Part shown: positions 21,596 to 47,880 of the stretch, piece by piece
Layout: each line of letters starts with the position of its first letter
Position numbering within the stretch: position 1 is the first letter of the stretch
Source of the DNA: Thermodesulfobacteriota bacterium
GTDB taxonomy: Bacteria > Desulfobacterota_D > UBA1144 > Nemesobacterales > N074bin48
Assembly: GCA_041572575.1 (NCBI GenBank)
Contig: JBFFSH010000010.1
Span: forward strand, 1 to 48,967
Length of the DNA stretch: 48,967 bases
Direction of reading: 5' to 3'
Program-made: the position numbers and the translations under genes
Notes under the pieces: model-generated
Seen by the model: the letters and a program-made list of their open reading frames with translations, nothing else
Told to the model about the DNA's origin: nothing
Database searches by the model: none

Positions 21596-21651
21596 GACTG
21601 CATACTATAATTAATATTAAACAGCTTTTGATCCATGAAATTTCTAATTAA

Positions 21652-22365
21652 TTATCCAGCCAAGCCCTTTAACCAAAAACCAATAAAGTAAGCAATCGAT
21701 GCCGCTACTCCTCCAATTATCAGTGTTTCCAAGCCTGATAAAAACCATTTTTTATCTACTATGTTTGCTTTAATGGAACCCACGAGAAAAAGAGCAATAG
21801 AGGTGAAGATTATAGAAGTGATAAATGCAGATTCTTTAAAGAATGGGAAAAAGTAATATAGTATAAACGAGAAAAGCGGTATTATTCCCATGATATTAAA
21901 GGCTATAAAAGTCGTAAGCGCTGCTTTGATGGGTGATTTAGTCTCTTCTATAATACCAAACTCATCTGTCATCATCGTGTCAATCCAGATTTTTTTATTA
22001 CTGGTTATCACATCAACTGTTTTTTGCAAATGATCACCTGAAAACCCTTTTTGTTTATAAATCTCATGTATTTCCTCGCGTTCTTCTTCCGGTTTTTCAA
22101 TGATTGAGTTTTCTTCAGCTCTTCTGATTTTATTTGCAAATTCTATATGAGATTTGGTTCCAAGATAATTCCCTACAGCCATGGAAAATCCGTCGGCGAA
22201 TAAATTTGCAAATCCTAAAACAAGCACAATCCCGGGCGATAGAGAAGCACCGGATACCCCTGCTACAACCGCAAAAGTTGTAACAGCGCCATCAATACCT
22301 CCGTATACGAAATCGGACACTAAAACACTGTGCATAGTAGATATCTTCTTCATTTTATGAGCCAA
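21652..22365 (-). CDS. VIT1/CCC1 family Fe/Mn transporter
   Basis: DFVYGGIDGAVTTFAVVAG, GFANLFADGFSMAVGNYL; start uncertain (ATG 22359 or 22350). Confidence 0.9.
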   Translation of the reverse strand: MAHKMKKISTMHSVLVSDFVYGGIDGAVTTFAVVAGVSGASLSPGIVLVLGFANLFADGFSMAVGNYLGTKSHIEFANKIRRAEENSIIEKPEEEREEIHEIYKQKGFSGDHLQKTVDVITSNKKIWIDTMMTDEFGIIEETKSPIKAALTTFIAFNIMGIIPLFSFILYYFFPFFKESAFITSIIFTSIALFLVGSIKANIVDKKWFLSGLETLIIGGVAASIAYFIGFWLKGLAG

Positions 22366-22469
22366 AAAATCTAAATTAATGATTAAATATCATTTATTAT
22401 TATATTAGAATTTAGCGTAATTCCTTTATATTATTACATTATGTTGCTGAATTATCTACTAAGCTTACA

Positions 22470-23894
22470 CTATCCGGACAGCGGCCCAATGAGTTTTATA
22501 TCTTTTTTGGACTTAATTTCTTTAGTTTGTAAATCAATAAAATCGATTTCTATCGATTTCGTGCCCGTTTCATTTATAACTTCATAAGGAAATTTTAAAA
22601 AGAAATGAACCGTAATATCCTTACCCGCAAAAATTTGGATATCCTTATTTTGTGAAATGATTTCTATCTGACCATCATTCCATTTCTCTGATATTTTTAA
22701 TTGGATTATTGAATCCTCGAATGTCTGATTTTTAAGATGTAGTTTGAAATGATTGATAATTTTTTTATCACTACCTTCCTGCACTACCTGATAAGGTACA
22801 TCTTTTCCTCTGAGCATGGTAACCAACAAATCCTGTCTTTTGGAAACATTAATTATTAATAGTGAAAAAATTAGAATTAAAAGTACCGAATATAGAGCTA
22901 TTCTTGGTTTTAATAATTTTGAAGTAAATCCATTTAAGCTGTTTGCCGAAACATATCGTATCAGGCCTTTTGGTTTATCAATATGTTCCATAACTTCATC
23001 ACATGCATCAATGCATGCCGTGCATCCCACGCATTCCATCTGCAGACCACTCCTAATATCTATCCCCGTAGGACAGACCGATACGCATTTATAGCAGTCA
23101 ATACAGTCTCCTGCTTTATTAGCTGCATCTACAGTTCCTTTTCTGGGCTCTCCCCTGTTATAATCATATGCAACTGTTACAGAATCATCATCCATAAGGA
23201 CCGACTGAATCCTTCCATAAGGACACATAATAATGCAGAACTGCTCTCTAAACCATCCGAAATCAAATAAAATTACAGATGAGATAAAAAACATTATTAC
23301 AAAAATTGTCCAGTTTTCCTGAGGGTTGTGTTGAGTCATCTCAACAAGTCTTTCAGCACCTACAAAATATGCCAGAAAACTGTGTGTGATAATGAGGCTA
23401 ACCAAAGTAAAGAAAAACCAGGTAATTGAATATTTTAATATCTTTTCTTGATTCCAGGGAGCTTTTGCAAGGTTCATCTGCTTTATATGGCTGCCAATTA
23501 TCAGGTGCTCTATTCTTCTGAATACCCCATCTACAAAAACTGTCTGAGGACAACCCCACCCACACCAAACCCTCCCGTATACAGCAGTCATAAAGGCAAG
23601 GCCAATGGTAAGAATTGCGAGTATATAAAAAATTAAAGGGCCGTCATGAGCCCAGAATGTAAGACCGAAGATCGAAAACCTTCTGTTGGGTATATCAAAT
23701 AATAGAGCCTGGTATCCATTTACCTTTAACCAGGGTAAAACAAGAAGAATAGTAATCAGTATAACCTGTGTCAGGGTTCTCCATTTTCTAAAAAGTCCTC
23801 TAACCTTCTCCGGAAATATATATACCCTTTTGCCTGTCTCATCCAGTGTGGACAGGCGTTGGTCAGGCAACTCTCTTTTATTGAGAACCTTCAT
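22470..23894 (-). CDS. ccoG: Cytochrome cbb3 accessory protein CcoG (4Fe-4S, copper reductase)
   Basis: GRVWCGWGCPQT, FCIIMCPYGR, DCIDCYKCVSVCPTGIDIR, ECVGCTACIDAC. Confidence 0.95.
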   Translation of the reverse strand: MKVLNKRELPDQRLSTLDETGKRVYIFPEKVRGLFRKWRTLTQVILITILLVLPWLKVNGYQALLFDIPNRRFSIFGLTFWAHDGPLIFYILAILTIGLAFMTAVYGRVWCGWGCPQTVFVDGVFRRIEHLIIGSHIKQMNLAKAPWNQEKILKYSITWFFFTLVSLIITHSFLAYFVGAERLVEMTQHNPQENWTIFVIMFFISSVILFDFGWFREQFCIIMCPYGRIQSVLMDDDSVTVAYDYNRGEPRKGTVDAANKAGDCIDCYKCVSVCPTGIDIRSGLQMECVGCTACIDACDEVMEHIDKPKGLIRYVSANSLNGFTSKLLKPRIALYSVLLILIFSLLIINVSKRQDLLVTMLRGKDVPYQVVQEGSDKKIINHFKLHLKNQTFEDSIIQLKISEKWNDGQIEIISQNKDIQIFAGKDITVHFFLKFPYEVINETGTKSIEIDFIDLQTKEIKSKKDIKLIGPLSG

Positions 23895-23895
23895 T

Positions 23896-24474
23896 TTATT
23901 TGGTTATTTTCTCACCCTGAGGCGGTTTTGCCCCCGGAGGATTAGATCCTCTAATACTATAAATATATACTGATACTTTCTCTAGTAATTTTACATCAAT
24001 CACACCTTTCCACGGAGGCATACCTTTATCCAGAACACCTTCATTGGCAATTTTAAGTATAGATGTTATTGAGCCGTCACCATGTATCCAGTAATCATCG
24101 GTCATATTAGGACCGATCAGTCCCTGGGCCTCCGCTCCATGACAAGCTGCACATTTTATAATATATTCAGCTTTTCCAGCCGATAAAGCTTCTTGGTCAT
24201 TAACCAGAGCGAGCAGACTATCTTCGGATCTTACCTGCATTGTATCTTCAAACTTAGCCTGGAGGGTTTGTATTGACTCCATATCTTTCATTAAATATTC
24301 TTCAGATGTTGGGCCTGAGCCAAATTGATAATAGACCCAGTAAATTACAGCAAATATAACAGTCAGGTAAAAAGTCGTAAGCCACCATCCGGGTAGAGGA
24401 TTATCAAGCTCACGAATACCGTCATACTCATGACCTTCAATTGGCTTATCTTCATTTTGGTTTTCATTGCTCAT
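23896..24474 (-). CDS. ccoP: cbb3 oxidase subunit III, monoheme
   Basis: HEYDGIRELDNPLPGWW, single CAACH, GPNMTDDYWIHG, KGMPPW. Confidence 0.93.
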   Translation of the reverse strand: MSNENQNEDKPIEGHEYDGIRELDNPLPGWWLTTFYLTVIFAVIYWVYYQFGSGPTSEEYLMKDMESIQTLQAKFEDTMQVRSEDSLLALVNDQEALSAGKAEYIIKCAACHGAEAQGLIGPNMTDDYWIHGDGSITSILKIANEGVLDKGMPPWKGVIDVKLLEKVSVYIYSIRGSNPPGAKPPQGEKITK

Positions 24475-24644
24475 GATTTATTTTCCTCCTTTTCTAGAGG
24501 TAGTTTTTCAAGTTCCTTATAAATCTCTTCATTAGATTTTCTATACGTGGAAAGTACTATGGCAATAAATGCAGTAAAGAAAATCAAAAGTGCAATTGCC
24601 ACAAGATATGTATGCTCATAATATGCAAGTGCAATCTGTTTCAT
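24471..24644 (-). CDS. ccoQ: cbb3 oxidase small subunit CcoQ, 57 aa (missing from the ORF track)
   Basis: MKQIALAYYEHTYLVAIALLIFFTAFIAIVLSTYRKSNEEIYKELEKLPLEKEENKS*; one TM, C-terminal LPL, GGAG RBS, ATGA overlap with ccoP. Confidence 0.85.
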   Translation of the reverse strand: MKQIALAYYEHTYLVAIALLIFFTAFIAIVLSTYRKSNEEIYKELEKLPLEKEENKS

Positions 24645-24645
24645 T

Positions 24646-26799
24646 TTATTCTCCTTGTACTATCTTTTCTGTTTTTTTGCCAAGACTCTGCATGTAAGCA
24701 ATCATTGCAAGTACCTGGGTATCTTTTATCCTTTTAAGCGATGGATCTTGTTCCACAAGACCTTTAAGAATATCGTCTGCCTGCTTCTGTGCATGAATGT
24801 CGGCGTTGGCTACAACATCCTGTTCATAAGGAACACCGAGTTTCTTCATTACGCTTAGTTTCTTTCTGCTATTTAGATAGTCGATCTTCTTCACGGCAAG
24901 CCATGGGTATGAAGGCATAATAGAATTTGGAGAGATCTCTCTTGGGTTAATAAAATGCCTCAGATGCCATAGGTCGGGATATTTGCCGCCCACCCTAGCT
25001 AAATCAGGCCCGGTCCTCTTGGATCCCCACTGAAATGGTCTGTTATACATGGATTCCTCAATAGTAGAATGAGGTCCAAATCTGAGTACATCAAACTGAA
25101 GCTTCCTTATCATTTGAGAGTGACACGTATAACACCCTTCGCTTATATAGATGTCTCTGCCCTCAAGCTCAAGAGGCGTAAACGGTTTGGTTGCAACATT
25201 TGCGGGTACGTATTTATGTATAGAAAGTGTGGGAATGATTTCTATCACAGACCCCACTATGATGGACACGAATACAAGAACTGTAAAAACAGCTCCAAGC
25301 CCTTCGATTTTTCTGTGTCCGGTTCCAAGGTCTGAACTGCTATGACTTGGTGCAGGTGCGGTAAAAGTCTCGGCTTTTGATTCTTTAGGAGCGATTTTTA
25401 CTGTCATCCATACATTGTAAATAAGCATGATATAGCCAATAAGGAATAACAATCCACCTATGAATCTGACATAATAAAGAGGCACTATTCTCATTACGGT
25501 TTCAACAAAATCCGGATATACAAGCTGCCCGGAATCATCAATTGCCTGCCACATCAACCCCTGTGTAATACCACTTGCCCACATAGAAATGTAGTAAAGC
25601 AGTATTCCTACAAGGGCAATCCAGAAGTGATTTACCACAAGCTTGTGACTATAGATTTTTGTGTTCCATATTTTTGGTACCAGAAAATAAATTATTCCAA
25701 AAGTAAGAAATCCATTCCATCCGAGTGTTCCGCCATGAACGTGCCCTATGATCCAGTCTGTGTAATGTGCAAGAGAATTTACAGACTTTATTGATAGAAG
25801 CGGGCCTTCGAAAGTTGACATTCCATAAAAAGTAACTGCCGCTACCAAAAACTTGATTATCGGATCTGTACGAAGCAGGTGCCATGCGCCTCTAAGCGTA
25901 AGAAGACCATTTATCATCCCCCCCCAGCTAGGGGCCCAAAGCATTACGCTGAAAACCATACCCAGAGTTTGTGCCCAGTCGGGAAGAGCAGAATTGAGCA
26001 GATGATGTGGACCAGCCCAAATGTAAAGAAATACAAGGGCCCAGAAATGAATAATAGACAACTTGTAACTATATACAGGTCTGTTTGATGCCTTCGGAAT
26101 ATAATAATACATCAAACCCAAAAATGGAGTCGTAAGGAAAAAAGCGACTGCGTTGTGCCCATACCACCACTGAACAAGCGCATCCTGAATACCTGCATAT
26201 ACCGGATAACTCTTTAGCATTGTTACTGGTATTTCAATTGAATTAACTATGTGCAAAACGGCTACAGTGATAATAGTTGCTATATAAAACCATATTGCGA
26301 CATAAAGATGCTGAATTCTTCTTATAGCTATGGTTCCAAAAAAGTTTACTGCAAAAATTACCCATACCACTGCAATTGCAATATCAATCGGCCATTCAAG
26401 CTCTGCATATTCTTTTCCGTGTGAGTAACCTAGCGGAAGGGTAATTAGAGCAGATAGAATAATTAACTGCCATCCCCAAAAATGAACATTGGATAAGAAA
26501 TCTGAGTATAGTCTTGTTTTCAGAAGCCTTTGCAGGGAATGATATATACCCATGAATATGGCATTTCCGCCAAATGCAAATATTGCAGCATTTGTATGAA
26601 GCGGTCTTATACGTCCAAAGGTAAGCCATTCAAGGTCGAGGTTGGCTTGCCAGAAAGCCAGCTGCAGTGCTGCAAGCAAGCCAACTATAAATGCTGCCGC
26701 TCCCCAGAATATAGTTGCTGTTAAAAACTTCTTAACAATCAGATCATCATACTCAAATGTTTCCAACTGAGATGCAGATGTGGTTTTAGCCTCACTCAT
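24646..26799 (-). CDS. ccoNO: cbb3 oxidase fused subunits I and II (CcoN-CcoO)
   Basis: GRIRPLHTNA, QWWYGHNAV, WAGPHHL, IIGHVHGG, then EGCYTCHSQMIR and WGSKRTGPDL in the same frame. Confidence 0.97.
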   Translation of the reverse strand: MSEAKTTSASQLETFEYDDLIVKKFLTATIFWGAAAFIVGLLAALQLAFWQANLDLEWLTFGRIRPLHTNAAIFAFGGNAIFMGIYHSLQRLLKTRLYSDFLSNVHFWGWQLIILSALITLPLGYSHGKEYAELEWPIDIAIAVVWVIFAVNFFGTIAIRRIQHLYVAIWFYIATIITVAVLHIVNSIEIPVTMLKSYPVYAGIQDALVQWWYGHNAVAFFLTTPFLGLMYYYIPKASNRPVYSYKLSIIHFWALVFLYIWAGPHHLLNSALPDWAQTLGMVFSVMLWAPSWGGMINGLLTLRGAWHLLRTDPIIKFLVAAVTFYGMSTFEGPLLSIKSVNSLAHYTDWIIGHVHGGTLGWNGFLTFGIIYFLVPKIWNTKIYSHKLVVNHFWIALVGILLYYISMWASGITQGLMWQAIDDSGQLVYPDFVETVMRIVPLYYVRFIGGLLFLIGYIMLIYNVWMTVKIAPKESKAETFTAPAPSHSSSDLGTGHRKIEGLGAVFTVLVFVSIIVGSVIEIIPTLSIHKYVPANVATKPFTPLELEGRDIYISEGCYTCHSQMIRKLQFDVLRFGPHSTIEESMYNRPFQWGSKRTGPDLARVGGKYPDLWHLRHFINPREISPNSIMPSYPWLAVKKIDYLNSRKKLSVMKKLGVPYEQDVVANADIHAQKQADDILKGLVEQDPSLKRIKDTQVLAMIAYMQSLGKKTEKIVQGE

Positions 26800-26974
26800 T
26801 TGTTCTATCCTCCGTCTTTAATTTTCTTTTTTGTTTTTCATTATCCAATATTGCCCTGTGAGAGGGTGTGACAAGGTCATCGTACTGTCCCTTTTTTGTT
26901 GACCATATAAAAAACAGTAGAAATGATAATGACAAAAGAAGCGATACTCCCAGAGTAAAGAAAATAATGTTCAT
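26792..26974 (-). CDS. ccoS: cbb3 maturation protein CcoS
   Basis: TM followed by FIWSTKKGQYDDL..P..RAILD. Confidence 0.92.
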   Translation of the reverse strand: MNIIFFTLGVSLLLSLSFLLFFIWSTKKGQYDDLVTPSHRAILDNEKQKRKLKTEDRTNE

Positions 26975-29202
26975 TTGGTTTGTAAGCCCCCTGCTTTATT
27001 CTTAGACATGCCTATTAAGGAGCTGCCTAGGAGAAGTACAGAGCTAAGTGGCATTAGAACGGCTGCCAAAAGAGGGTTTATATATCCCATTAATGCCAGC
27101 ATGCCGGCAGATACGTTATATATCACTGAAAGTATAGTATTAGTTTTGATAGTGCTGTTTGTAATATTTGCGTGCTTAATGATTTCCAGTATTGATGAGA
27201 GGCTGTTTCTAAGTATATAAATATCTGAGACTTTGAGGCTCTGTTCAGCACTTCCCTGAACAGCAATTCCTATATCGGCATTTAAAAGAGCCCCTGCATC
27301 GTTTAGGCCGTCTCCAACAAACATTGAGCCTTTCTTGGTTTTAATAAAATCTATTTTCTGCTCGGGAGTTAGTCCAGAAAGTGAATTGCCGGTGGGAATT
27401 GAGAGCATGCTTGATACAAGCTCGACATTACCCTTTCTGTCTCCAGATAGCATATAAATATCATATTTGTCCTTGGAGAGCTGATTTAAGGTGTCAAAAG
27501 CGTCATCTTTTATTTCATCTCCCAGATAAATAGTCGATAATTTCTGTCCGTCTTTTATTACCGATACACAATTTGAAACAGCAGATGCAGAATTATAAAT
27601 CTTTGCACTTTTATCATCTGAATAAATTTCATATGTATGGCCTCCTACCTCTGCCTTAATTCCTCTGGAATGAATGTTTTCTAAATTCATTACCTCAGGA
27701 AGATTAAGCCTGTCTAAAGTCAGACTACTAACTATCGCTCTAGCTACGGGATGATGAGACTTACTCTCAATTGCCAGGATTGCCGAAAGATCTTCTGCTG
27801 ATAAATTCTTTTTATCCCACTGTACTATATTGAATTTACCTTTTGTTAAGGTACCGGTCTTATCAAAAACAACATTTCTAACTGACCTAATCTTCTCAAA
27901 TATATTTGAATCTTTAATAATGAATCCTTTTTTAACAGCGGACTTAAGGGAGAGTCCAAACGTAAGCGGGAGTATAAAAACAAATGCACATGGACAGGCA
28001 ATGAGGACAAAAGAGACTATTCTTTTTAACGCTTCATGGGTTCCATATATGTTTGCTATAGAGAAGAACCCGGCAATGGATACAACCGCAACAAAAGACG
28101 TAAAGATAGTTGAATATCTGTCACTAAAACCCTCAAAGCTTATTTTTTGTTCATAGTTTTCTTTTACCTTATCAAGAACTTTGCCAAGCCTTGTTTCAAT
28201 ACCGGTGTTAATTACTTTTAGTTCTGCTTGCTCAGAGTCCAGTATTGATCCGGCAAAGACATCTGAATTTTCTAAGACAGTTTTTGGAATTGCCTCTCCC
28301 GTTAAAACCGAGAGATCAAATACTGCAATGTGATTTAATAGTATGCCATCCACCGGCACTCTCTGTCCTCTGTCAAGCTTTACTAAATCTCCTGATTTGA
28401 GTTCAGAAATAGGATAGAACCCATAAGTGCTTGTATGAGTATCGTATTTAAGAATCTTATTATCCTTTAGAAGTGAGCTAAACAAGTCGGTGTCTGAGAT
28501 TAGCTTGTTCTGAAAAGACCTAATAAGATATCTGCTTACAAGAAGCAGAAATACAAATATGGTTATTGAGTCATAGTAAACCCCGCCTATACCTTTTATT
28601 AAATTATAAGTGCTTAAAATGAATCCAATTAATACAACAAATACTACAGGGAAATCAACTGTAGCTTTAAGGGCTCTTATTGAGGAATAGGCATTTTTAT
28701 AAAATGGAAAACTACAGTATGTTACAACAGGAATGGATAAAAACAGATTAATGATTTCAAAATTATTTCTAAAAATTCCCTCCGCTCCTGAGTAAATGGC
28801 CGCAGAAAGAAGCATGATATTACCTGCACATACCCCAGATATCCCTATGCGGTATAAACTATCCTTGTTTTCTAGTTTCTTTATATTTTTTGCGTCACTA
28901 CTATCTTTAATTGGATATGCCTTATATCCAAGGTTACTTACAAGTTGAGGGAATTTCGAATAACAATCAGCACTTGAAAATTCCACGTCGGCTATGTTTG
29001 TAGACATATTGAGGGTTACGCTTTTAATAAAATCAGATTTAGAAGGGATTTCTTCCAATACTCCCAGACATCCTGAACAGTGAACACCCTCTATATAGAA
29101 GCTCATTCTTAGAGGTGAATCTGCTGATGTATATAGATCTTTAAAATTTGAATTGTCCAGATACTTATAATCTTCCAGTTTACTAGTCGTAGTATTGATC
29201 AT
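26971..29202 (-). CDS. ccoI: P1B-type copper ATPase CcoI/FixI
   Basis: GVHCSGC, LTGE, IACPCA, FDKTGTLT, HHP, VGDGLNDA; first gene of the cco operon. Confidence 0.92.
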   Translation of the reverse strand: MINTTTSKLEDYKYLDNSNFKDLYTSADSPLRMSFYIEGVHCSGCLGVLEEIPSKSDFIKSVTLNMSTNIADVEFSSADCYSKFPQLVSNLGYKAYPIKDSSDAKNIKKLENKDSLYRIGISGVCAGNIMLLSAAIYSGAEGIFRNNFEIINLFLSIPVVTYCSFPFYKNAYSSIRALKATVDFPVVFVVLIGFILSTYNLIKGIGGVYYDSITIFVFLLLVSRYLIRSFQNKLISDTDLFSSLLKDNKILKYDTHTSTYGFYPISELKSGDLVKLDRGQRVPVDGILLNHIAVFDLSVLTGEAIPKTVLENSDVFAGSILDSEQAELKVINTGIETRLGKVLDKVKENYEQKISFEGFSDRYSTIFTSFVAVVSIAGFFSIANIYGTHEALKRIVSFVLIACPCAFVFILPLTFGLSLKSAVKKGFIIKDSNIFEKIRSVRNVVFDKTGTLTKGKFNIVQWDKKNLSAEDLSAILAIESKSHHPVARAIVSSLTLDRLNLPEVMNLENIHSRGIKAEVGGHTYEIYSDDKSAKIYNSASAVSNCVSVIKDGQKLSTIYLGDEIKDDAFDTLNQLSKDKYDIYMLSGDRKGNVELVSSMLSIPTGNSLSGLTPEQKIDFIKTKKGSMFVGDGLNDAGALLNADIGIAVQGSAEQSLKVSDIYILRNSLSSILEIIKHANITNSTIKTNTILSVIYNVSAGMLALMGYINPLLAAVLMPLSSVLLLGSSLIGMSKNKAGGLQTK

Positions 29203-29259
29203 ATGTGTAGTTATATTTATTTGTTCTAGAACTCAAGAAACGTCTTTGAGAAGAATAAA

Positions 29260-29275
29260 AGCAATAAATATGCCA
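29260..29275 (-). promoter_or_regulatory. Sigma54 -24/-12 promoter of the cco operon
   Basis: Minus strand TGGCATATTTATTGCT, 58 bp upstream of ccoI. Confidence 0.85.
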
Positions 29276-29429
29276 GTATGTCTTGGCTAGATTTCAGTCA
29301 AGAGCATGTGGGTTAATTATTTATTGATATACTATTTACCAAATAGTAATCACTAAGCAAGTCTGCTATTTCTTTATAATTACATATTTATTATATTTTG
29401 AATTTAACAGTATTTGCAATTTCAACAGT

Positions 29430-29453
29430 TGTCTGATATTAAGACATCAGACA
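29430..29453. promoter_or_regulatory. Putative activator binding site (UAS), TGT-N11-ACA-N4-ACA
   Basis: TGTCTGATATTAAGACA-tcag-ACA between divergent sigma54 promoters. Confidence 0.7.
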
Positions 29454-29506
29454 TAAATCCCTCAGGCGAGATCCCTTAATATTTATGAAATACTCAATTT
29501 AATTGT

Positions 29507-29522: not shown

Positions 29523-29537
29523 CTTAATATATTTATG

Positions 29538-40507: not shown

Positions 40508-40559
40508 TATTTTATTCTAAATATATTAAATACCCCTACATTTCACTCTATGATAAAGC

Positions 40560-40583
40560 TGTAAGCATTTCTTACACCTTACA
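40560..40583. promoter_or_regulatory. Putative UAS, TGT-N11-ACA-N4-ACA
   Basis: TGTAAGCATTTCTTACA-cctt-ACA (6-bp perfect inverted arms). Confidence 0.75.
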
Positions 40584-40623
40584 ACTAGTTTACCAAAAAC
40601 CGCCCAAATAACGCAATTAAGTA

Positions 40624-40639
40624 TGGTATGGAGATTGCA
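40624..40639 (+). promoter_or_regulatory. Sigma54 promoter of the usp-pgk-CBS operon
   Basis: TGGTATGGAGATTGCA. Confidence 0.8.
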
Positions 40640-40669
40640 CATATTACTAAAAACACGGGCGGTGATACA

Positions 40670-41095
40670 ATGATAAAAAAAATAGTTTTTCCAACAGACT
40701 TTTCAGAATACTCATCAAAAGCCAGAGACTATGTAGCAGAACTCGCAGGTACTCTGGGCTCCAGAGTTTATATAATTCATGCAATCGAGCCAATTCAGTA
40801 TGAAGAAGATGATGAAGAGATTAAACAGTTCTACAGAAACATTGAATTAGAAATTAACAATAAGATTGAAAAGGAAAAGGACTACTTCTTACAAAAAAAC
40901 ATAGATGTTTACACAGATACGGTAATCGGTTCTGCATGGAAAGTAATCAACACATATGCAAAGGAAAAAGAAATTGACCTTATCGTCATGGGATCGCACG
41001 GTTTTAAAACTGAAAAAGATGAAGTTGTAATAGGTACTACGAGCCACAAAGTGGTTCTCACTTCACCATGCCCTGTATTGATAGTAAGAAATTAA
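40670..41095 (+). CDS. Universal stress protein, single domain
   Basis: MIKKIVFPTDFS, DLIVMGSHG, IGTTSHKVV..SPCPVLIV; ATG 40670 after GGCGGTG RBS. Confidence 0.93.
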   Translation: MIKKIVFPTDFSEYSSKARDYVAELAGTLGSRVYIIHAIEPIQYEEDDEEIKQFYRNIELEINNKIEKEKDYFLQKNIDVYTDTVIGSAWKVINTYAKEKEIDLIVMGSHGFKTEKDEVVIGTTSHKVVLTSPCPVLIVRN

Positions 41096-41110
41096 TCCAA
41101 GGTAAAATTT

Positions 41111-42364
41111 ATGAATAGACTCTTCATAGACGACATGCCCGACAGTTTTTATAAGGACAAAAAGGTTCTGGTAAGGGTAGATTACAATGTTCCTGCAATA
41201 AGAGGGCAAATTAAAGAAGATTACAGGATCAGACAGACAATTCCTACCATAGAATACTTATCTGAACGGGGAGCAAAAACAATATTGATCTCTCACCTGG
41301 GAAGACCAGGGGGCACCCCGGATAAAAAGCTGTCTCTAAAACCTATAGCCGAAAGACTTGTTGAAATTTTAAAAGTAAGAAATGTAAAATTTGTTGATCA
41401 ATGCATTGGTAATCATGTCAATTATCTTGCAGATCATTTACATAAGGGTGAGGTATTGCTTCTTGAAAACCTAAGGTTTCTTAATGATGAAGAAGATAAT
41501 GATCCCGAGTTTTGCAGACTGTTTTCGGATATAGCAGATATATATGTTAATGATGCCTTTAGCACTTCACATAGAACCCACGCATCTACTTACGGAATTC
41601 CCATGCTTTTCGAACACAAACTGGGAGGCTTTGTACTCAAAAACGAACTATATAATTTAGATAAAATTAAAGAAAACCCAAAAAGACCGTTTCTTGCAAT
41701 TGTGGGAGGATCTAAAGGAAAAGAAAAGATAGGTGCAATAAGCAGTCTAGTAAAATATGCAGACACTATTCTAATAGGTGGATGTGTAGCTAATACTTTT
41801 TTGGCAGCAAGAGGAATATCAGTTGGCGACTCAAATATTGCAAATAAATCTATAGAACAGGCCAAAACTATACTGAGGGACTATGCAGATAAAATTATCC
41901 TGCCCGATGATTTCCTGGTCGAAGATTGTGACCGTAGGGAAATTTTGAAAAATGTTCATTATGAAATACCTCTTGGACAAAAAGTTGTTGATATTGGAAG
42001 AGATACTACATACTATTATTCACATCAAATATTAAATAACAATGGAACAATATTCTGGAGTGGCCCGATGGGACAGTTTGAAGTTGATGAATACGCGCAT
42101 GGCACAAACGAAATTGCAAAGTCTGTGTCCTATGCGCATTGGAGAGGAGCATACACTGTTGTTGGCGGTGGGGATACAATTGCAGCGATCCGAAAAGCCG
42201 ATGTGCTGCTAAATGAAATTGACTTTGTATCTACCGGTGGAAGTGCCACTTTAAAATATTTAGCAGGGATAAACCTTCCTGGAATATCGGTTTTATCAGA
42301 GCAATTAAGCGATAAGAATAATGTAATAAAATTAAATTATGGAGGTGATACCTTATGCTTGTAA
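41111..42364 (+). CDS. pgk: Phosphoglycerate kinase (divergent)
   Basis: VRVDYNVP, SHLGRP, LLENLRF, VNDAF..SHR.HAS, GGGDT, STGG. Confidence 0.9.
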   Translation: MNRLFIDDMPDSFYKDKKVLVRVDYNVPAIRGQIKEDYRIRQTIPTIEYLSERGAKTILISHLGRPGGTPDKKLSLKPIAERLVEILKVRNVKFVDQCIGNHVNYLADHLHKGEVLLLENLRFLNDEEDNDPEFCRLFSDIADIYVNDAFSTSHRTHASTYGIPMLFEHKLGGFVLKNELYNLDKIKENPKRPFLAIVGGSKGKEKIGAISSLVKYADTILIGGCVANTFLAARGISVGDSNIANKSIEQAKTILRDYADKIILPDDFLVEDCDRREILKNVHYEIPLGQKVVDIGRDTTYYYSHQILNNNGTIFWSGPMGQFEVDEYAHGTNEIAKSVSYAHWRGAYTVVGGGDTIAAIRKADVLLNEIDFVSTGGSATLKYLAGINLPGISVLSEQLSDKNNVIKLNYGGDTLCL

Positions 42365-42741
42365 AAGAATGTATGACAAAAGATCCTATTACTATATCAA
42401 CCGATGAAGATGTTCAGTATGCGTTTTATATATTAAAGAAACATGACATTAAACAACTACCAGTCACAAACAACGGATATATATTAGGGATTGTGACTGA
42501 AAGAGATCTGAGAATGTTAATTGAAAAAGAGTACGGTATAAAAATAGAATCTGCTATGAGTACTAATCTGCAAACAATAAGTGAAGACGATAGGATTGAG
42601 AAAGCTGCTCAAATCATACATTACAAAAAGTATAATGCTCTTCCAGTTGTGGACAATACGGATAAACTTGTAGGAATTATAACCGTAACAGACATTATTG
42701 AAGGACTTTTAACAATTATAAATGATCAAAAGAATCAATAA
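42355..42741 (+). CDS. CBS-pair domain protein
   Basis: VKECMT..PITI, LPV..GIVTERDL, LPVVD..LVGIITVTDI. Confidence 0.92.
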   Translation: MLVKECMTKDPITISTDEDVQYAFYILKKHDIKQLPVTNNGYILGIVTERDLRMLIEKEYGIKIESAMSTNLQTISEDDRIEKAAQIIHYKKYNALPVVDNTDKLVGIITVTDIIEGLLTIINDQKNQ

Positions 42742-42796
42742 TACTAAACTTTGTCAGTATATATAAATTTGTATATTGGGGAACATAACGATAACC

Positions 42797-43243
42797 ATGT
42801 TTTATTTGAAGGGATTTAACTACATAATCACGATAATCCTTTATGTGCTTATAGCAAACTTTGCGCTGTCTCAATATGAAGAAGACCCACAAGAATTAAA
42901 CGAAGAACAAATCATTGAAAACATATCACCTGAGCAAGCATACAAAATGATTGAGGCTAATACAGGTAACAACAATTTTATTATTCTTGATCTAAGAACA
43001 CCCCAAGAGCATAGAGAAGAACATATTGAAAAATCTAAAAACATTAACTTCCTTTCAGAAAATTTTAGAAAAGAATTAAACAATCTGGATAAAGAAAATA
43101 CCTATATCATCCATTGCCGATCCGGTAGTAGAGCAGCAAAAACTCTTCCAATTATGAAAGAGTCTGGTTTTAAAAAAGTATATAATTTTCAAGGAATAAT
43201 TCAGTGGAAAGAAGCCGGACTTGAAACAGTGAAGACCAAATAA
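42797..43243 (+). CDS. Exported rhodanese-like domain protein
   Basis: Signal-like N-terminus, ILDLRTPQE..HI, HCRSGSRA. Confidence 0.85.
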   Translation: MFYLKGFNYIITIILYVLIANFALSQYEEDPQELNEEQIIENISPEQAYKMIEANTGNNNFIILDLRTPQEHREEHIEKSKNINFLSENFRKELNNLDKENTYIIHCRSGSRAAKTLPIMKESGFKKVYNFQGIIQWKEAGLETVKTK

Positions 43244-43258
43244 AATCGGGATAAATAT

Positions 43259-44329
43259 ATGCTTAAATTACTGAGATATTCATTATTAGCATTTATTCTA
43301 CTTACTATTCCAGAGGCTTTAGCACAGGATGATTTACAAACCAAAGCCCAGGCCCTGTTTAAGGCAATACCTGATAGCCCGCCTCAATTTGAAAACAACC
43401 CGGCAACGGCTGATAAAATCAAGCTTGGCAAAATGCTGTATTTTGAACCTCGCTTGTCTGCCTCTCATTTAATAAGCTGCAATACTTGTCATAACTTAGG
43501 CACAGGTGGTGTTGACCTGCAGGAAACCTCAGTAGGTCATGGCTGGCAGAAAGGTCCTAGAAACGCGCCTACAGTTCTAAATGCCGTTTTCAATATAGCA
43601 CAGTTTTGGGACGGAAGGGCAAAGGATCTCGCCGATCAGGCTAAGGGACCTGTTCAGGCAACAGTAGAGATGAATAATAATCCTCAACGAGTAGTTGCAA
43701 CGCTAAAGAGTATGCCTGAATATCGCAATTTATTTGCTCTGGCTTTTCCAAAACAAAAAGAACACACTAGCTTTGAAAATGTTGTAAAGGCTATAGAGGT
43801 ATTTGAGGCAACACTTCTAACACCTGATTCGAGGTTTGATGAATTTCTTAAAGGAAACGCTAAAGCTCTAAGCAGCCAGGAAAAGGAAGGATTAAGGCTC
43901 TTCATGGATAAGGGATGTGCAAGTTGTCACAATGGAATAAACCTTGGCGGAAATAGCTACTTTCCTTTTGGTGTAGTACAAAATCCCGGAGCTGAAATAC
44001 TTCCCCCTGGAGATAAGGGCCGGTTTAAGGTAACAAAGACCGCAAGTGATGAATATGTGTTTAAGGTCCCGACCCTGCGTAATATTCAGCTAACACCTCC
44101 ATACTTTCATTCCGGCAAAGTATGGAGCCTGAAAGAAGCTGTATCCATCATGGGCTCATCTCAATTAGGAATAAAACTTGATGACAACCAAATCGGTAAA
44201 ATTACCATTTTCCTAAACTCCCTAAATGGCAAACAGGTTAAGACGGAATATCCAATACTACCTGCCAATACTGAGGATACACCAAAACCTATATTAAAAA
44301 CTATAAATGGGAGCAATCAAGGTCATTAG
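43259..44329 (+). CDS. ccp: Di-heme cytochrome c peroxidase
   Basis: SCNTCH, RNAPTVLN, QFWDGRA, GCASCH, FKVPTLRN..TPPYFH. Confidence 0.95.
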   Translation: MLKLLRYSLLAFILLTIPEALAQDDLQTKAQALFKAIPDSPPQFENNPATADKIKLGKMLYFEPRLSASHLISCNTCHNLGTGGVDLQETSVGHGWQKGPRNAPTVLNAVFNIAQFWDGRAKDLADQAKGPVQATVEMNNNPQRVVATLKSMPEYRNLFALAFPKQKEHTSFENVVKAIEVFEATLLTPDSRFDEFLKGNAKALSSQEKEGLRLFMDKGCASCHNGINLGGNSYFPFGVVQNPGAEILPPGDKGRFKVTKTASDEYVFKVPTLRNIQLTPPYFHSGKVWSLKEAVSIMGSSQLGIKLDDNQIGKITIFLNSLNGKQVKTEYPILPANTEDTPKPILKTINGSNQGH

Positions 44330-44405
44330 TAATATCTTTTATACTATTTAAACGCTAGCTGAAAATAATCAGTAGAACAACTACAGTTGCCATTATTAAC
44401 ATGAT

Positions 44406-46034
44406 TCATATGCCCGGATTGGCTTTATTTCCTTGAGATGTCTTACCGGATGCCAGAATAGATTGCTCATAATGTTGTATTATCCTTGCAATATGTTTAC
44501 TAACACGCCTTAACCATCTAATAGCCTCAAGGTTTTCTGTGCCTGTCGCAACATCATACTGTCCCGATGCCACTTTATCCATAACGCTCTGTCTGAAGGG
44601 TTTTACCAGCTTGTGTATTTTCGACGAAGTATCTTTAGCCTGCCAAACGGCATGTGTCCAATGATGATTTTTAATATCTCCTAAAATTTTATCAATACTG
44701 ATTTTAAGCAAATCGGCCTGCACTGAAAGATCGGCACTCTCTCTAGCAGTTATTGCCCTATCCTCCTGCTCTTCGCATCTCTCAAGGAGCCGCTGCAAAT
44801 GATCCAGGGCATGAATCATGTTTACCAGCCTTTCCCAGTTTACCCCCATCCCGGATTCAACATTAATTTTGTCTATATAAGACTGTGTATCGTTAATTGC
44901 CGATTGTAGTTCATCAATGTCTATTCTTTTTTCTTTGCCCTTACCGCCTAGAATTGCGCTAATATGTGAGAGTAAACCCAGGGTTTCACTTTTTATCGTA
45001 GTTTGAACTGCATTAAGTGCTAAATTTGGATCCTCAAGCAAAGTAAAATCAAGTTTTTGAGTATATGTTGAAATTTTACCAGGAATCAATTTTTCCATAA
45101 AACCGGCAAAATGCCCTGTAAACGGGATTATCAGAAACACGCCCAATGTATTAAAAAATGTATGAAACGCTACGAGCGCAATTTCTGCATTATTTATAAG
45201 CTGCCCGGGGGCAAGGTATTCCCATATTGAAGTGTATGGAGTAATTAAGAACAAAGCCATTGTAGCTGTTAGGAAGTTGTAAATCACATGGGAAAATCCT
45301 GTTCTTTTTGCACCAACAGAACCTCCGATGGTAGCCATTGCTGCCGTAATCGTTGTTCCTATATCCATTCCTATTACTAAAGCAGCGGCTTGGTTAAAGT
45401 TTATCAGGTCAGTAAAGAGTGCAGTCAGAGCCGCAACGACTCCAGCACTTGATGACTGGGTAATCGCCGAAAATAAAAGCCCAATACCAAGAAGTAATAT
45501 TCTGCTTAAAAAAGTGTCTGCGGGAAGGTTTTGAAATGAAATAAAACCGTGCAGTTCTATCATTGACTGCTGCATAGCCGTAATTCCAACAAATATCAGT
45601 CCAAAACCGGCAATCGAATACCCAATTGCACTAAGACGTCCCTTGGTAAAAAGTCTCAGCACTGCACCTATAAATACCAGCGGTAAAAATATATTTACCA
45701 GACTTAGTTTAAATCCAAGGATTGCAATCAGCCAGCCCTTAAAAGTGGTCCCGATATTAGCGCCAAAAATAATCCCGAGCGCCTGGGGAAATGTTAATAT
45801 CTCTGCCCCCACAAAACCCACTGCTGCCACAGTAGTTGCGCTTGATGATTGCAGAACCGCTGTACTTGCGGCACCTGTAAGAGCACCCGTTGCCGGACTG
45901 CTTGTAAAACGCATAAGTACTGACCGCATTGCGCTTCCTGCAAGCGTTCGAAGTCCGTCGGTAAGCACAATCATCCCTAGCAAAAAAAGACCAATGCCTC
46001 CGGCAGTCTGAATTATTATTTGAATATTGCTCAT
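44406..46034 (-). CDS. Na/Pi cotransporter family protein
   Basis: GGIGLFLLGM, LQSSSATT, GANIGTT, repeat TQSSSA/GMDIGTT. Confidence 0.92.
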   Translation of the reverse strand: MSNIQIIIQTAGGIGLFLLGMIVLTDGLRTLAGSAMRSVLMRFTSSPATGALTGAASTAVLQSSSATTVAAVGFVGAEILTFPQALGIIFGANIGTTFKGWLIAILGFKLSLVNIFLPLVFIGAVLRLFTKGRLSAIGYSIAGFGLIFVGITAMQQSMIELHGFISFQNLPADTFLSRILLLGIGLLFSAITQSSSAGVVAALTALFTDLINFNQAAALVIGMDIGTTITAAMATIGGSVGAKRTGFSHVIYNFLTATMALFLITPYTSIWEYLAPGQLINNAEIALVAFHTFFNTLGVFLIIPFTGHFAGFMEKLIPGKISTYTQKLDFTLLEDPNLALNAVQTTIKSETLGLLSHISAILGGKGKEKRIDIDELQSAINDTQSYIDKINVESGMGVNWERLVNMIHALDHLQRLLERCEEQEDRAITARESADLSVQADLLKISIDKILGDIKNHHWTHAVWQAKDTSSKIHKLVKPFRQSVMDKVASGQYDVATGTENLEAIRWLRRVSKHIARIIQHYEQSILASGKTSQGNKANPGI

Positions 46035-46128
46035 TAGCCCTGCCAGTTATTAAATTAATATATAAATGGCAATCTTGATTATAGTTGTTGATATTTAGCT
46101 TATACTGAGAGGAAATATCATATAAATT

Positions 46129-46794
46129 TCACACATTATAACTAGCATTTTCTGCTTCACCGGTCATAGGAACGAACCTCACCAGGGTTATTCTTTTTTT
46201 TGTCAGTCCACTTTTTTCCTTGATAATTAATTTTAATTCCTGATATTCCTCTTCTAACGGAATTACCATTCGCCCCCCAATTTTTAACTGATCCACGAGG
46301 GGTTTTGGCAATACTTTAGGACAAGCAGTTACTATTATTGCATCAAAAGGAGATTTTTCTTTCCACCCCTGATAGCCATCTCCAATTTTAAAATTTATAT
46401 TCTCATAGCCAAGATTATCCAGGGTCTCCTTTGCTCTAAGACCCAGGCTCTCAATAATTTCAATAGTATATACCCTGCAGCCCAGATCAGAGAGAATGGC
46501 CGTTTGATAACCGCACCCTGTACCTATCTCAAGAACTTTATCTCCTTTTTGTAAATCTAATAAATCAGTCATTAAGGCAACTATATATGGTTGGGATATA
46601 GTTTGATCTTCTCCTATTGGCAAGGGGCCATCAGAATAGGAATACAGTGAGTATTCTTTGGGAATAAACAGGTGGCGCGGGACTCTTAAAAATGTTGTTA
46701 ATAACTTTTTGCTTTTTATGCCGCGGGCCTTAATTTGCTCGTTAACCATATTCGTACGCGCATTCGTGTAGTTGTAATCTGCATTAGTTTCCAT
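46129..46794 (-). CDS. pcm: Protein-L-isoaspartate O-methyltransferase
   Basis: VPRHLF, QTISQPY, VLEIGTGCGYQTA, GDGYQGW, VRFVPM. Confidence 0.95.
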   Translation of the reverse strand: METNADYNYTNARTNMVNEQIKARGIKSKKLLTTFLRVPRHLFIPKEYSLYSYSDGPLPIGEDQTISQPYIVALMTDLLDLQKGDKVLEIGTGCGYQTAILSDLGCRVYTIEIIESLGLRAKETLDNLGYENINFKIGDGYQGWKEKSPFDAIIVTACPKVLPKPLVDQLKIGGRMVIPLEEEYQELKLIIKEKSGLTKKRITLVRFVPMTGEAENASYNV

Positions 46795-46809
46795 TGTAAT
46801 ACCCTCATA

Positions 46810-46899
46810 CTATTGCCCTGATCTCATAAACCAGATTGCTGCAAATATTATTAAAGCGACTACTATGATATAAACAAACCCTCCGCCTATTGCTTCCAT
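46810..46899 (-). CDS. 29-aa single-TM microprotein (missing from the ORF track)
   Basis: MEAIGGGFVYIIVVALIIFAAIWFMRSGQ*, GGGAAGG RBS, sits between ybaK and pcm on the same strand. Confidence 0.6.
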   Translation of the reverse strand: MEAIGGGFVYIIVVALIIFAAIWFMRSGQ

Positions 46900-46979
46900 A
46901 TTACCTTCCCATAAAAATTATGTATTTAACCGACTTTTTTCTTTTGATTAATTCCCCCGTACTGAATTATATAATTATT

Positions 46980-47447
46980 TCAGTTTTTTTCCGAAAATTT
47001 CAATATCTTTGGTTTTACCAGTCTCTCAAAGTCTTTATAAGAAAGCCTTATTAACTCGGAATGAGTACCGGCGTTAAAGAATATCTCTTCATCTTCGGCA
47101 AGACTCCGGGCTACATAAACATCCATGCCGTAGAGGTTTCCAAACGGCGGCATGGCACCGACCTCACAATCGGCAAACATATCTTTAAACTCCTGCTCAT
47201 CCGCAAGACTTATTCTAATTGCTCCCGATGCTTCCTCAAGAAGTTTAAAATCTACATGGTAAGAAGCAGGAAGCACCGCCATAGCCATCTTACCATCAAG
47301 TTTAATCATAACAGTTTTTGCAAGCTCTTTTCCAGAAACATGCGCATTCTCCGCTATCTGCTGAGCAGTAAATGCGGGAGAGTGCTTTATGGTAATATAT
47401 TTTATATTATTCTCATCTAAATAGTTTTTAAGTTTTTGTACAGGCAT
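46980..47447 (-). CDS. YbaK/EbsC/ProXp family aminoacyl-tRNA deacylase
   Basis: [26 protein letters not shown]. Confidence 0.9.
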
Positions 47448-47512
47448 TGTTTACCCCCTTATTTAAATTACTCAAAACTAGATTGTTGTTGTTTAGTTCC
47501 TACTACTAGTAA

Positions 47513-47528
47513 TTCAATTAAGGTGCCA
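47513..47528 (-). promoter_or_regulatory. Sigma54 promoter (variant -12) of the ybaK-pcm operon
   Basis: Minus strand TGGCACCTTAATTGAA. Confidence 0.7.
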
Positions 47529-47579
47529 AAATAATATTCAATAGTTAAAGGTAATTAGATTTATATATATTTGGTATGG

Positions 47580-47603
47580 TGTCTAATAATCTTACAGCTT
47601 ACA
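47580..47603. promoter_or_regulatory. Putative UAS, TGT-N11-ACA-N4-ACA
   Basis: TGTCTAATAATCTTACA-gctt-ACA. Confidence 0.7.
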
Positions 47604-47838
47604 TCACAAGATATTTAAAGTGGTTAATTAATAGAATTTGATATAATTTAATAATTGAGGAAATTTGATAAATACTGCGATAATAAATTAAGATGTCAGT
47701 GTCTATGTCGGTAAGTCAATTGGCTATTTCATACAAACAGACTAAACAAAAAATGCAGGAAAGGAATTTTTTGCACAAATACTGAATTTATTGAATGTTT
47801 TGCAATGTCGGAAAATCCAGGAACATCCCGTTTTAGCC

Positions 47839-47880
47839 TTTAGGACGCAATGGCCTCTGGTCAGAGCTCGGTCACATTTA
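47839..47880 (+). repeat. Second, more decayed copy of the tRNA-Pro 3' half (old attR)
   Basis: tttaggacgcaatggcctctggtcagagctcggtcacattta aligns ungapped to 11202-11243 at 30/42 (manual count). Confidence 0.6.

Follow-up and report, generated by a model that had tools for sequence, protein, structure and literature searches.

Organization of the locus and its sigma-54 promoters

The window analyzed here, a whole contig of 48,967 bp (JBFFSH010000010.1, C10), belongs to the assembly GCA_041572575.1 of a Thermodesulfobacteriota bacterium, which comprises 2.6 Mb in 137 contigs, with a completeness of 96% and a G+C content of 37%. Between positions 21,596 and 47,880 lies a block of genes for a cbb3 oxidase, universal stress proteins (USPs), Hsp20, and other proteins, with a central unit coding for a GNAT acetyltransferase, a sensor histidine kinase with a FixL-like PAS domain, and an NtrC-type activator of sigma-54 promoters. 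On balance, the kinase and the activator probably switch on a dispersed set of sigma-54 promoters at low oxygen.

The original prediction for this DNA, drawn from the letters alone, described eight -24/-12 promoters at the head of nearly every unit of the block and none before genes elsewhere in the window. All eight sites were recovered, at most 1 nt from where they had been placed. Scored against TGGCAC-N5-TTGC, which we take to be the sigma-54 consensus, seven of them carry at most one mismatch, and the site at 40624 carries two, with its GG and GC doublets kept. The GG and the G of the -12 element are present in all eight, at the ten-base spacing expected of the GG and GC doublets, and each site is intergenic and oriented toward a gene whose start codon lies 14-93 nt 3'. 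The sites and the units that they would serve are the following.

29261-29275 (-), P1: TGGCATATTTATTGC; promoter of ccoI and the cbb3 genes
29507-29521 (+), P2: TGGCATGGACATTGC; promoter of an outer-membrane protein (OMP) barrel and a TetR regulator
31130-31144 (+), P3: TGGCACATATTTTGT; promoter of a 79-aa open reading frame (ORF), 31182-31421
32381-32395 (-), P4: TGGCACAAATGTTGC; perfect consensus; promoter of the tandem USP 31439-32320
35743-35757 (-), P5: TGGCATTAAAGTTGC; promoter of Hsp20, a tandem USP, a cytochrome c, and probably an amino-acid permease
35917-35931 (+), P6: TGGTACATCTTTTGC; promoter of the GNAT(-kinase-regulator) unit, start codon 14 nt 3'
40624-40638 (+), P7: TGGTATGGAGATTGC; two mismatches; promoter of a USP-PGK-CBS-rhodanese-peroxidase unit
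47514-47528 (-), P8: TGGCACCTTAATTGA; promoter of a YbaK-like gene

Nine matches with at most one mismatch occur in the window, compared with an average of 1.71 over 100 shuffles, which never give more than 6; with at most two mismatches the excess is weak (38 versus 29.0 expected). Seven of the nine are the sites listed above, the remaining two (6322 and 45825) being intragenic. In the rest of the window no site with at most one mismatch heads a gene, which agrees with the second part of the prediction. Across the genome, crude ORF calls give 49 sites of at most one mismatch that are intergenic and face the right way, and seven of these 49 fall in the 26-kb block, which is about 1% of the genome. 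Sigma-54 is widely used in this organism, which has one rpoN gene and 12 strong Sigma54_activat proteins, and the block is its densest promoter cluster.

The sole candidate outside the block is a weaker sigma-54-like site, AGGCATTTCCGTTGC, at 9645-9659 (+), in the gap 5' of an ORF that starts at 9780. It lies 121 nt upstream of this 95-aa ORF, and an integrase gene comes next.

A motif shared by the promoters

A scan for upstream activator sites, proposed along with the original prediction, points to a 24-nt element, TGTC-N9-GACA-N3-GACA, which was spotted in the window and in the upstream regions of its relatives and corresponds to a 17-bp palindrome plus a third half-site. From five intergenic regions it serves seven of the eight promoters at distances of 40-155 nt, being 40-72 nt for the nearer promoter and 148-155 nt for P1.

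29423-29453 (unstranded), motif 1: palindrome TGTCTGATATTAAGACATCAGACA; between the divergent P1 and P2; 19.7 and 17.1 bits; 54 nt from P2
31067-31090 (+), motif 2: TGTTTGATTGTAAGACACCGGACA; 17.0 bits; 40 nt 5' of P3
35829-35852 (unstranded), motif 3: TGTCTTATTTCCAAACAACTTACA; between the divergent P5 (72 nt away) and P6 (65 nt away); 18.9 bits by the matrix from relatives alone
40560-40583 (+), motif 4: TGTAAGCATTTCTTACACCTTACA; 16.2 bits; 41 nt 5' of P7
47573-47603 (unstranded), motif 5: TGTCTAATAATCTTACAGCTTACA; 21.4 bits, second in the genome; 52 nt from P8

The pairing of the motif with promoters was evaluated in both directions. A matrix built from 10 sites of the relatives only, which avoids circularity, was scanned over the whole 2.6-Mb genome, and a sigma-54 site (at most one mismatch, within 200 nt, facing away) is present at all eight top distinct loci, compared with 1.0% of 20,000 random places. 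The window loci at 47580, 29430, 35829, 31067, and 40560 are all within the top 13 distinct loci of the genome, three of them within the top eight. Reciprocally, when the matrix came from just the five window sites and the stretches of 12 relatives were scanned with it, 26 loci reached at least 13 bits, and 23 of these have a sigma-54-like site within 200 nt. Upstream sites common to the target promoters are a feature of NtrC-class regulation, and the regulator encoded in the block would be the protein that binds them. Neither the motif nor a sigma-54 site is found in the gaps 5' of ccoNO, the kinase gene, PCMT, and the Na/Pi carrier gene.

Moreover, exact matches to the motif are more numerous in genomes that have the kinase. 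Five kinase-bearing relatives have 10, 4, 4, 2, and 2 of them (22 in total), versus 3, 1, 0, 0, and 0 (4 in total) in five kinase-lacking genomes, where the genome with three belongs to a genus that otherwise has the kinase. A sigma-54-like site lies 43-191 nt from the motif at 18 of the 18 exact-match loci fetched from the kinase-bearing relatives. The genes behind these loci code for GNAT (three times), CcoI (three times), Hsp20 (twice), OMP, CBS, a cytochrome c, a YbaK protein with a divergent hibernation factor, a CMD-family protein, and several unknowns; a PpsA/PPDK-type enzyme and an outer-membrane efflux protein come from two of 12 loci with one mismatch.

Upstream of P4 (32396-32450), where the motif would be expected, a direct repeat, TTTACGG-N8-TTTACGG, was seen by eye, and a different activator may bind there.

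The sensor kinase, the activator, and the acetyltransferase

The central unit and its putative internal promoter consist of the following elements (domains from Pfam).

35946-36530 (+): GNAT acetyltransferase, which opens the unit
36652-36679 (+): sigma-70-like promoter in the gap between GNAT and kinase, TTAACA-16-TATAAT, 11/12, a consensus match only
36732-39158 (+): soluble sensor histidine kinase (GAF, PAS, PAS, PAS, HisKA, HATPase)
39155-40507 (+): NtrC-type response regulator/enhancer-binding protein (Response_reg, Sigma54_activat, AAA_lid_14, HTH_8)

A heme-PAS kinase at the center of the block had been predicted, and the second PAS domain (residues ~326-456) is indeed FixL/DosP-like, with matches in the PDB ranging from E 2e-14 to 4e-11 (the heme domain of DosP at 2e-14, FixL at 2.4e-13). 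His388, in the sequence RASH, is aligned with the proximal heme ligand of FixL and DosP, and Arg408 with the distal Arg of FixL, the roles and numbering of the FixL residues being those that we assume. Both residues are invariant in the 13 aligned orthologs, and the surrounding RPMGxGRDL...RKDG..FPVEIGL is invariant or nearly so. On the other hand, the N-terminal GAF-PAS part is peculiar to the genome of the window and absent from most orthologs. From its similarity to solved heme domains and the proximal His, this PAS is predicted to hold heme via His388.

The adjoining regulator, whose start overlaps the stop of the kinase gene by 4 nt, bears out the sigma-54 activator of the original prediction. 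Its receiver, AAA+, and Fis-type helix-turn-helix domains are those of the NtrC class (Response_reg, E 1.8e-28; Sigma54_activat, 2.8e-63; HTH_8, 5.7e-16), and its translation contains the GSFTGA loop.

The sigma-70-like promoter at 36652-36679 is the best match of its kind within 29000-48900 and could possibly provide basal expression of the kinase and regulator. Also, the GNAT starts in the window and in the relatives mostly lack a Shine-Dalgarno sequence.

Conservation of the proposed circuit in relatives

The search for the same linkage in other genomes gave 12 relatives' loci with a kinase ortholog, of 45-55% identity over the part from the heme-PAS to the kinase. GNAT is directly 5' of the kinase in all 12, and the regulator directly 3' in 11 (61-67% identity), the contig of the twelfth ending first. 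This unit stands beside cbb3 or Hsp20/USP genes in 12 of 12 loci: ccoI-ccoNO-ccoP-ccoG accompany it in eight, and hsp20 and/or a tandem USP in four. Promoter and motif are also retained, being found in 6 of the 6 loci that include the ccoI upstream region and in 3 of the 3 that hold hsp20. Both the motif and the gene linkage recur in several families of the phylum. Orthologs of the OMP and CBS genes likewise lie behind a motif and promoter in relatives, as does a YbaK ortholog in the genome G028. There (G028:C30:2347-5370, L183), one motif lies between divergent sigma-54 promoters, one facing the YbaK-like gene and the other a long-form ribosome hibernation factor (Ribosomal_S30AE), which fits a dormancy-type output.

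In a survey of 120 genomes of the phylum, a kinase match (E at most 1e-90) is present in 45, including 30/33 in family f2, 13/15 in f7, and 1/5 in f3, and none is found in f8 (37 genomes), f9 (19), f6 (6), f5 (2), or f4 (1). CcoNO occurs in 32 of the 120 genomes, all of them within the kinase-positive 45, and in 0 of the other 75. These genomes are kin and not independent, this co-occurrence being a pattern and not a statistic.

Among named genome contigs, a scan with the whole kinase confirmed no relative, and one with the ortholog alignment gave L059 as the only true ortholog locus among the matches listed, the kinase patterns being unspecific. The 79 loci from the latter scan were looked through for kinase-activator pairs, which gave two leads and no more than leads. 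In Gemmata sp. IIL30 (L114:10001-12676), a FixL-like PAS kinase (35% identity) that keeps the RxxH and MG..R....RKDG..FP.E motifs is followed directly by a sigma-54 activator (39% identity), so the pairing may exist beyond the phylum. In a metagenome-assembled genome labelled Deltaproteobacteria (L069:1124-12253), a kinase-activator pair (regulator of 39% identity) lies ~5 kb from CcoNO/CcoG; its kinase gave no heme-PAS match with the query used.

Putative target units in the block

Pfam searches of 24 block proteins confirmed every gene name given in the original prediction.

26971-29202 (-): CcoI-type P-type ATPase
24646-26799 (-): fused CcoNO, 717 aa, over the cut-off of the NCBIfam bifunctional CcoN/O model with 1154.9 bits
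23896-24474 (-): CcoP
22470-23894 (-): CcoG
21652-22365 (-): VIT1
29614-30270 (+): OMP barrel, first gene after P2
30350-30955 (+): TetR regulator, second gene after P2
31182-31421 (+): 79-aa ORF, with P3 and its own motif, no other gene being driven
31439-32320 (-): tandem USP, behind P4
35247-35708 (-): Hsp20, behind P5
34289-35149 (-): tandem USP
33709-34278 (-): cytochrome c
32425-33666 (-): amino-acid permease
40670-41095 (+): single USP, first gene after P7
within 40670-44329 (+), after this USP: PGK, CBS pair, rhodanese, and di-heme cytochrome c peroxidase
46980-47447 (-): YbaK-like deacylase, behind P8
46129-46794 (-): PCMT, after a 185-nt gap from the YbaK-like gene
44406-46034 (-): Na/Pi carrier, after a 94-nt gap from PCMT

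The genes from ccoI to VIT1 (21652-29202) would share one transcript, and those from Hsp20 to the permease (32425-35708), which lie on one strand with small gaps, are presumably cotranscribed as well. Of the targets that had been proposed, Pcm has neither a promoter nor a motif of its own, and its membership in the regulon, like that of the Na/Pi carrier, which lacks them too, is assumed. All eight promoters face genes as claimed, with the shared motif lacking at the tandem USP behind P4. Intrinsic terminators (8 versus 12.3 expected) are useless for placing operon ends.

The palindrome GTGAGYGCTCAC flanks the OMP-TetR unit at 29539-29550, 18 nt 3' of the -12 element of P2, and at 31027-31038, 29 nt 5' of motif 2, and occurs nowhere else in the genome. 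The TetR regulator (30350-30955) probably binds it as its operator and would then add a repressor layer on P2 and perhaps on P3. For the 79-aa ORF behind P3, neither Pfam nor NCBIfam gave a match, and the loci of the relatives lack a counterpart.

The candidate regulon beyond the block

Pairs of motif and promoter are also present on at least five other contigs of the genome, so the claim of a self-contained block does not stand.

C28: cytochrome c-nosZ-nosD cluster, with the best motif of the genome and a promoter
C37: eRF1-like gene, then Fe-S, cyclic nucleotide-binding (cNMP-binding), and NiFe-hydrogenase genes; motif and promoter
C24: divergent FtsH-HlyD-ABC and AAA_33/DUF5335 units; motif and promoter
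C5: YeeE/YedE-type sulfur transport and a heme-binding protein; motif and promoter
C118: ppsA-like gene and a Glu/Leu-type dehydrogenase; motif and promoter
C14 and C5: PAN-domain proteins (C14) and ccmCEF (C5), with weaker motifs

In the hydrogenase cluster (G000:C37:6585-12556, L053), the leading gene codes for an eRF1/baeRF-like protein of 436 aa, an odd partner of a hydrogenase; Fe-S, cNMP-binding, and NAD-binding proteins and the small and large subunits of the NiFe-hydrogenase follow.

The window contains a single integrative element, at 8-11211, 10 kb to the left of the block. Its ends are marked by a direct repeat (8-50 and 11169-11211), perfect over 43 nt, which corresponds to the 5' part of tRNA-Pro.

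10069-11154: tyrosine integrase of this element, abutting the intact tRNA

Its cargo comprises a Lhr-type helicase, a photolyase-related protein, an AhpC-like protein, and a lipocalin, with a G+C content of 0.27-0.31 in part.

Search for FNR/CRP-type regulators and presence in RNA libraries

The profile of the Crp helix-turn-helix (PF00325) has no match in the 96%-complete genome, and its single PF13545 match is a MarR-family protein, not a CRP/FNR regulator. The six matches to the cNMP-binding profile, which lie in frames of 126-171 aa, too short for an added DNA-binding domain, or, in two cases, in one frame of 896 aa, come with no Crp helix-turn-helix. Four small stand-alone cNMP-binding proteins are among the 126-171-aa frames, one of them in the motif-headed hydrogenase cluster. 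The FNR box TTGAT-N4-ATCAA, with at most one mismatch allowed, occurs eight times versus 5.4 expected, and none of these lies in the intergenic regions of the block.

At least part of the stretch is present in 16 sequencing runs, and 85-99% of the sampled words are found in four RNA-Seq libraries of one seawater study and in one library of unstated type. In two of the seawater libraries (X1 and X2), coverage is even over the whole stretch and extends to intergenic DNA, which makes them silent on transcription; in X9 and X6 there are short pieces on several block genes, where the uncovered parts carry no meaning. A sediment metatranscriptome from another study contains short pieces, with an identity of at least 99% in nearly every case, that fall on the genes for OMP, USP, Hsp20, the kinase, USP1, CBS/rhodanese, peroxidase, and YbaK, which is compatible with expression in sediments.

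Proposed mechanism and alternative explanations

In the proposed mechanism, the deoxy form of the heme-PAS would correspond to the active kinase, as in FixL, so that loss of oxygen would lead to phosphorylation of the regulator. The regulator would then bind TGTC-N9-GACA-N3-GACA and open sigma-54 complexes at P1-P3, P5-P8, and the loci outside the block, with P6 autoinducing the GNAT-kinase-regulator unit above the basal level set by the sigma-70-like promoter between the GNAT and kinase genes. Such activation would yield a high-affinity oxidase and its copper pump, along with alternative respiration and proteins for maintenance (USPs, Hsp20, CBS, and PGK), and in a relative a ribosome hibernation factor as well.

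Several points weigh against an oxygen-responsive circuit of this kind. It is predicted from sequence, and the RNA libraries are available only as assembled contigs, which show neither starts nor levels. P4 has no shared motif, its best score being 6.1 bits, with none of at least 6.2 within 400 nt upstream. The kinase scores 160.8 bits with the NCBIfam model of FixL (NF041777), whose cut-off is 850; the best PDB match of its PAS is 10jx, whose title is silent on heme binding; and in 6 of 44 kinase-matching relatives the best match begins only past the heme-PAS (query residue 109-148), that of one further relative being cut by the contig end. Also, heme-PAS proteins bind several gases and may answer nitric oxide (NO), carbon monoxide (CO), or redox state. 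The regulator falls under all NCBIfam equivalog cut-offs (391 bits of 714 for AtoC, 374 of 559 for NtrC, and 304.4 of 600 for NtrX, NF051870). The 14 nt between the -12 element of P6 and the GNAT start codon would give a near-leaderless transcript, which is unusual; a sigma-54-like site lies 14-19 nt 5' of the GNAT start in 10 of the 12 relatives' loci, spanning three families. Finally, it is from adjacency, autoregulatory placement, and co-occurrence that we infer binding of the motif by the adjacent regulator and not by one of the 11 other strong activators of the genome.

Two alternatives keep sigma-54 and change the signal or the binding protein. The signal sensed by the same wiring could be NO, CO, redox state, or energy status, received by the heme-type PAS or the N-terminal GAF/PAS, which would make the regulon a response to nitrosative or redox conditions or to starvation instead of to oxygen. 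The varied ligands of heme-PAS proteins speak for this, as do the presence of nosZ with a cytochrome c, a di-heme peroxidase, and a hydrogenase in the candidate regulon and the GAF and PAS domains that most orthologs of the kinase lack. However, what all 13 orthologs share is the FixL-like PAS with its His and distal Arg, not the GAF, and each of the 32 CcoNO-positive genomes of the phylum has the kinase. Moreover, the core targets (oxidase with copper pump, USPs, Hsp20, and CBS) are as in the hypoxia-induced NmpR regulon of Myxococcus xanthus, to the extent described in the available portion of its report (PMC11841059). A signal other than oxygen is unlikely. We regard it as still more doubtful that the motif is bound by another activator or an unrelated protein, with the adjacent pair controlling its own operon or something else. 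The genome has 12 strong Sigma54_activat proteins, the link from motif to regulator is an indirect one, and P4 shows that a promoter of the block can do without the motif. Nonetheless, in the window as in relatives the motif stands before the very unit of GNAT, kinase, and regulator, its exact matches are concentrated in kinase-bearing genomes (22 versus 4), and in 12 of 12 loci the pair adjoins cbb3 or hsp20 promoters that carry the motif.

The other two alternatives concern the type of promoter and the packaging of the system. An Fnr/FixK/CRP-type regulator acting at sigma-70 promoters could be the real switch, the -24/-12 matches being incidental. This is the usual arrangement for cbb3 oxidases in proteobacteria, and sigma-70-like hexamers are plentiful in A+T-rich DNA (72 found versus 76 expected). 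On the other hand, the 96%-complete assembly yields no Crp-type helix-turn-helix, the gaps of the block contain no FNR box, and the positions of the sigma-54 sites are conserved across families, which makes control of this type very unlikely already. Even less tenable is the view, part of the original prediction, that the block is a self-contained and once-mobile island with its own sensor, activator, and all targets. The unusual density of promoters (7 of 49 genome sites in ~26 kb) and the integrase and tRNA gene of the same window would favor it, but this integrase belongs to the 8-11211 element, and glycogen-metabolism genes (11371-21411) lie between that element and the block. Furthermore, neither 21.6 kb nor 47.9 kb shows a repeat, tRNA, or recombinase, no integrase or att repeat marks the edges, and the G+C content inside the block (0.31-0.42) overlaps with that outside (0.27-0.43), without a break in composition. 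With targets on at least five other contigs and relatives that combine the same modules differently, the modules being lineage-wide, the island is already contradicted.

With low-oxygen activation through the kinase and the activator as the preferred explanation, a wider one can be put forward tentatively. An uncultured phylum-level lineage without FNR/CRP may govern its programme for low oxygen and dormancy, which would include cbb3 oxidase, N2O reductase, hydrogenase, USPs, Hsp20, CBS, and a hibernation factor in one relative, via sigma-54 and a minimal sensor formed by a FixL-type kinase and an NtrC-type activator. This sensor would be the most minimal so far seen for such a circuit, acting through a defined enhancer, TGTC-N9-GACA-N3-GACA, and the conserved, near-leaderless GNAT may add an acetylation layer. 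The locus, conserved in ~40 genomes, offers eight promoters, a precisely defined enhancer motif, and a candidate regulon that exceeds 30 genes. This makes it directly testable, for example in a heterologous rpoN+ host; the candidate regulon could also serve as a marker set for the oxygen stress of these bacteria in metatranscriptomes, and the circuit as a compact oxygen-responsive sigma-54 switch for synthetic use. The conserved GNAT that heads the sensor operon is a separate lead, with the USPs as obvious candidate targets of acetylation, by analogy with USP acetylation in mycobacteria.

Comparison with known systems

Oxygen control of respiration is, in the textbook view, exerted by FNR, FixK, ArcA, and DosR at sigma-70 promoters, and versions that use sigma-54 were reportedly first worked out in Myxococcus between 2018 and 2025. 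The FixL-FixJ-FixK system of rhizobia and Caulobacter shares with the locus the class of PAS sensor (BjFixL, 1dp6, E 2e-13) and the cbb3 and assembly genes as targets. However, FixJ, the partner of FixL, is a LuxR-type regulator that acts on sigma-70 promoters via FixK, whereas in the locus an AAA+ sigma-54 activator takes the place of FixJ, and a FixK/FNR protein was not found.

In mycobacteria, DosS/DosT-DosR links a heme kinase to USPs, alpha-crystallin/Hsp20, and alternative respiration under hypoxia, through a heme-GAF sensor, a NarL-type regulator, and promoters of the sigma-70 type. The heme kinase and the USP, Hsp20, and respiration targets are thus alike, but the sensor, the regulator class, and the promoters differ. 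The best NCBIfam matches are AtoS-AtoC, with which the PAS-kinase/NtrC-type architecture is shared; nevertheless, both proteins are far under the cut-offs (213 bits of 646 and 391 of 714), and there are no acetoacetate genes.

NtrY-NtrX also pairs a PAS kinase with an NtrC-family regulator, and NtrY is reported to bind heme in Brucella. In this case, the regulator of the block remains at 304.4 bits with the NtrX model (cut-off 600), and no NtrY-like membrane/HAMP part was matched by Pfam in the kinase. In the portion of the source available, NtrY-NtrX affects cbb3 oxidase, cytochrome c peroxidase, and denitrification genes, and the targets of NtrX are described by NtrX boxes close to the start codons and not by -24/-12 promoters (PMC9409073).

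The closest likeness is to NmpRSTU of M. xanthus. Literature searches on a FixL-type kinase with a sigma-54 activator returned the Nmp papers as the only true analogue, and those on the lineage name plus sigma returned nothing relevant. According to the accessible part of the report, a heme protoglobin kinase signals to a hybrid kinase and from there to the NtrC-like NmpR, which binds pairs of GCGCA-N5-TGCGC 5' of sigma-54 promoters; the targets named there are its own operon (with a CBS gene first), USP, P-type ATPase and cbb3 genes, and hemN/hemerythrin, at least one of them being hypoxia-induced (PMC11841059). A heme kinase, an NtrC-like output, sigma-54 promoters, autoregulation, and CBS, USP, P-type ATPase, and cbb3 targets are thus common to both systems, as far as this part of the report describes them. 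This likeness is one of described features and does not imply orthology. Nonetheless, as described in the same portion of the source, NmpRSTU employs four proteins (the protoglobin NmpU, the sign-inverting hybrid NmpS, NmpT, and NmpR), whereas here a single FixL-type PAS kinase and a regulator would suffice, and no globin or hybrid-kinase domain was found by Pfam among the 24 block proteins. The enhancers differ as well (GCGCA-N5-TGCGC versus TGTC-N9-GACA-N3-GACA), and the candidate regulon here is wider than the one described for NmpR, with nosZ, hydrogenase, Hsp20, PGK, FtsH, and a ppsA-like gene, and with GNAT as the first gene of the sensor operon.

Of the architecture that the original prediction had called independent and did not recall as described, the wiring from a FixL-like sensor to an NtrC-type activator and sigma-54 is upheld in silico, whereas its novelty gives way to the comparable heme-kinase/NtrC-like/sigma-54 hypoxia circuit that the available text on NmpRSTU presents (PMC11841059). 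The locus would be a second, simpler, and independently wired sigma-54 example, from an uncultured marine lineage. If this is true, then together with NmpRSTU it would suggest that hypoxia regulons under sigma-54, sharing these core targets, occur widely beyond the FNR/FixK of proteobacteria, with interchangeable heme sensors. The circuit is in this sense a simpler variant of the principle described in Myxococcus and not a new principle.

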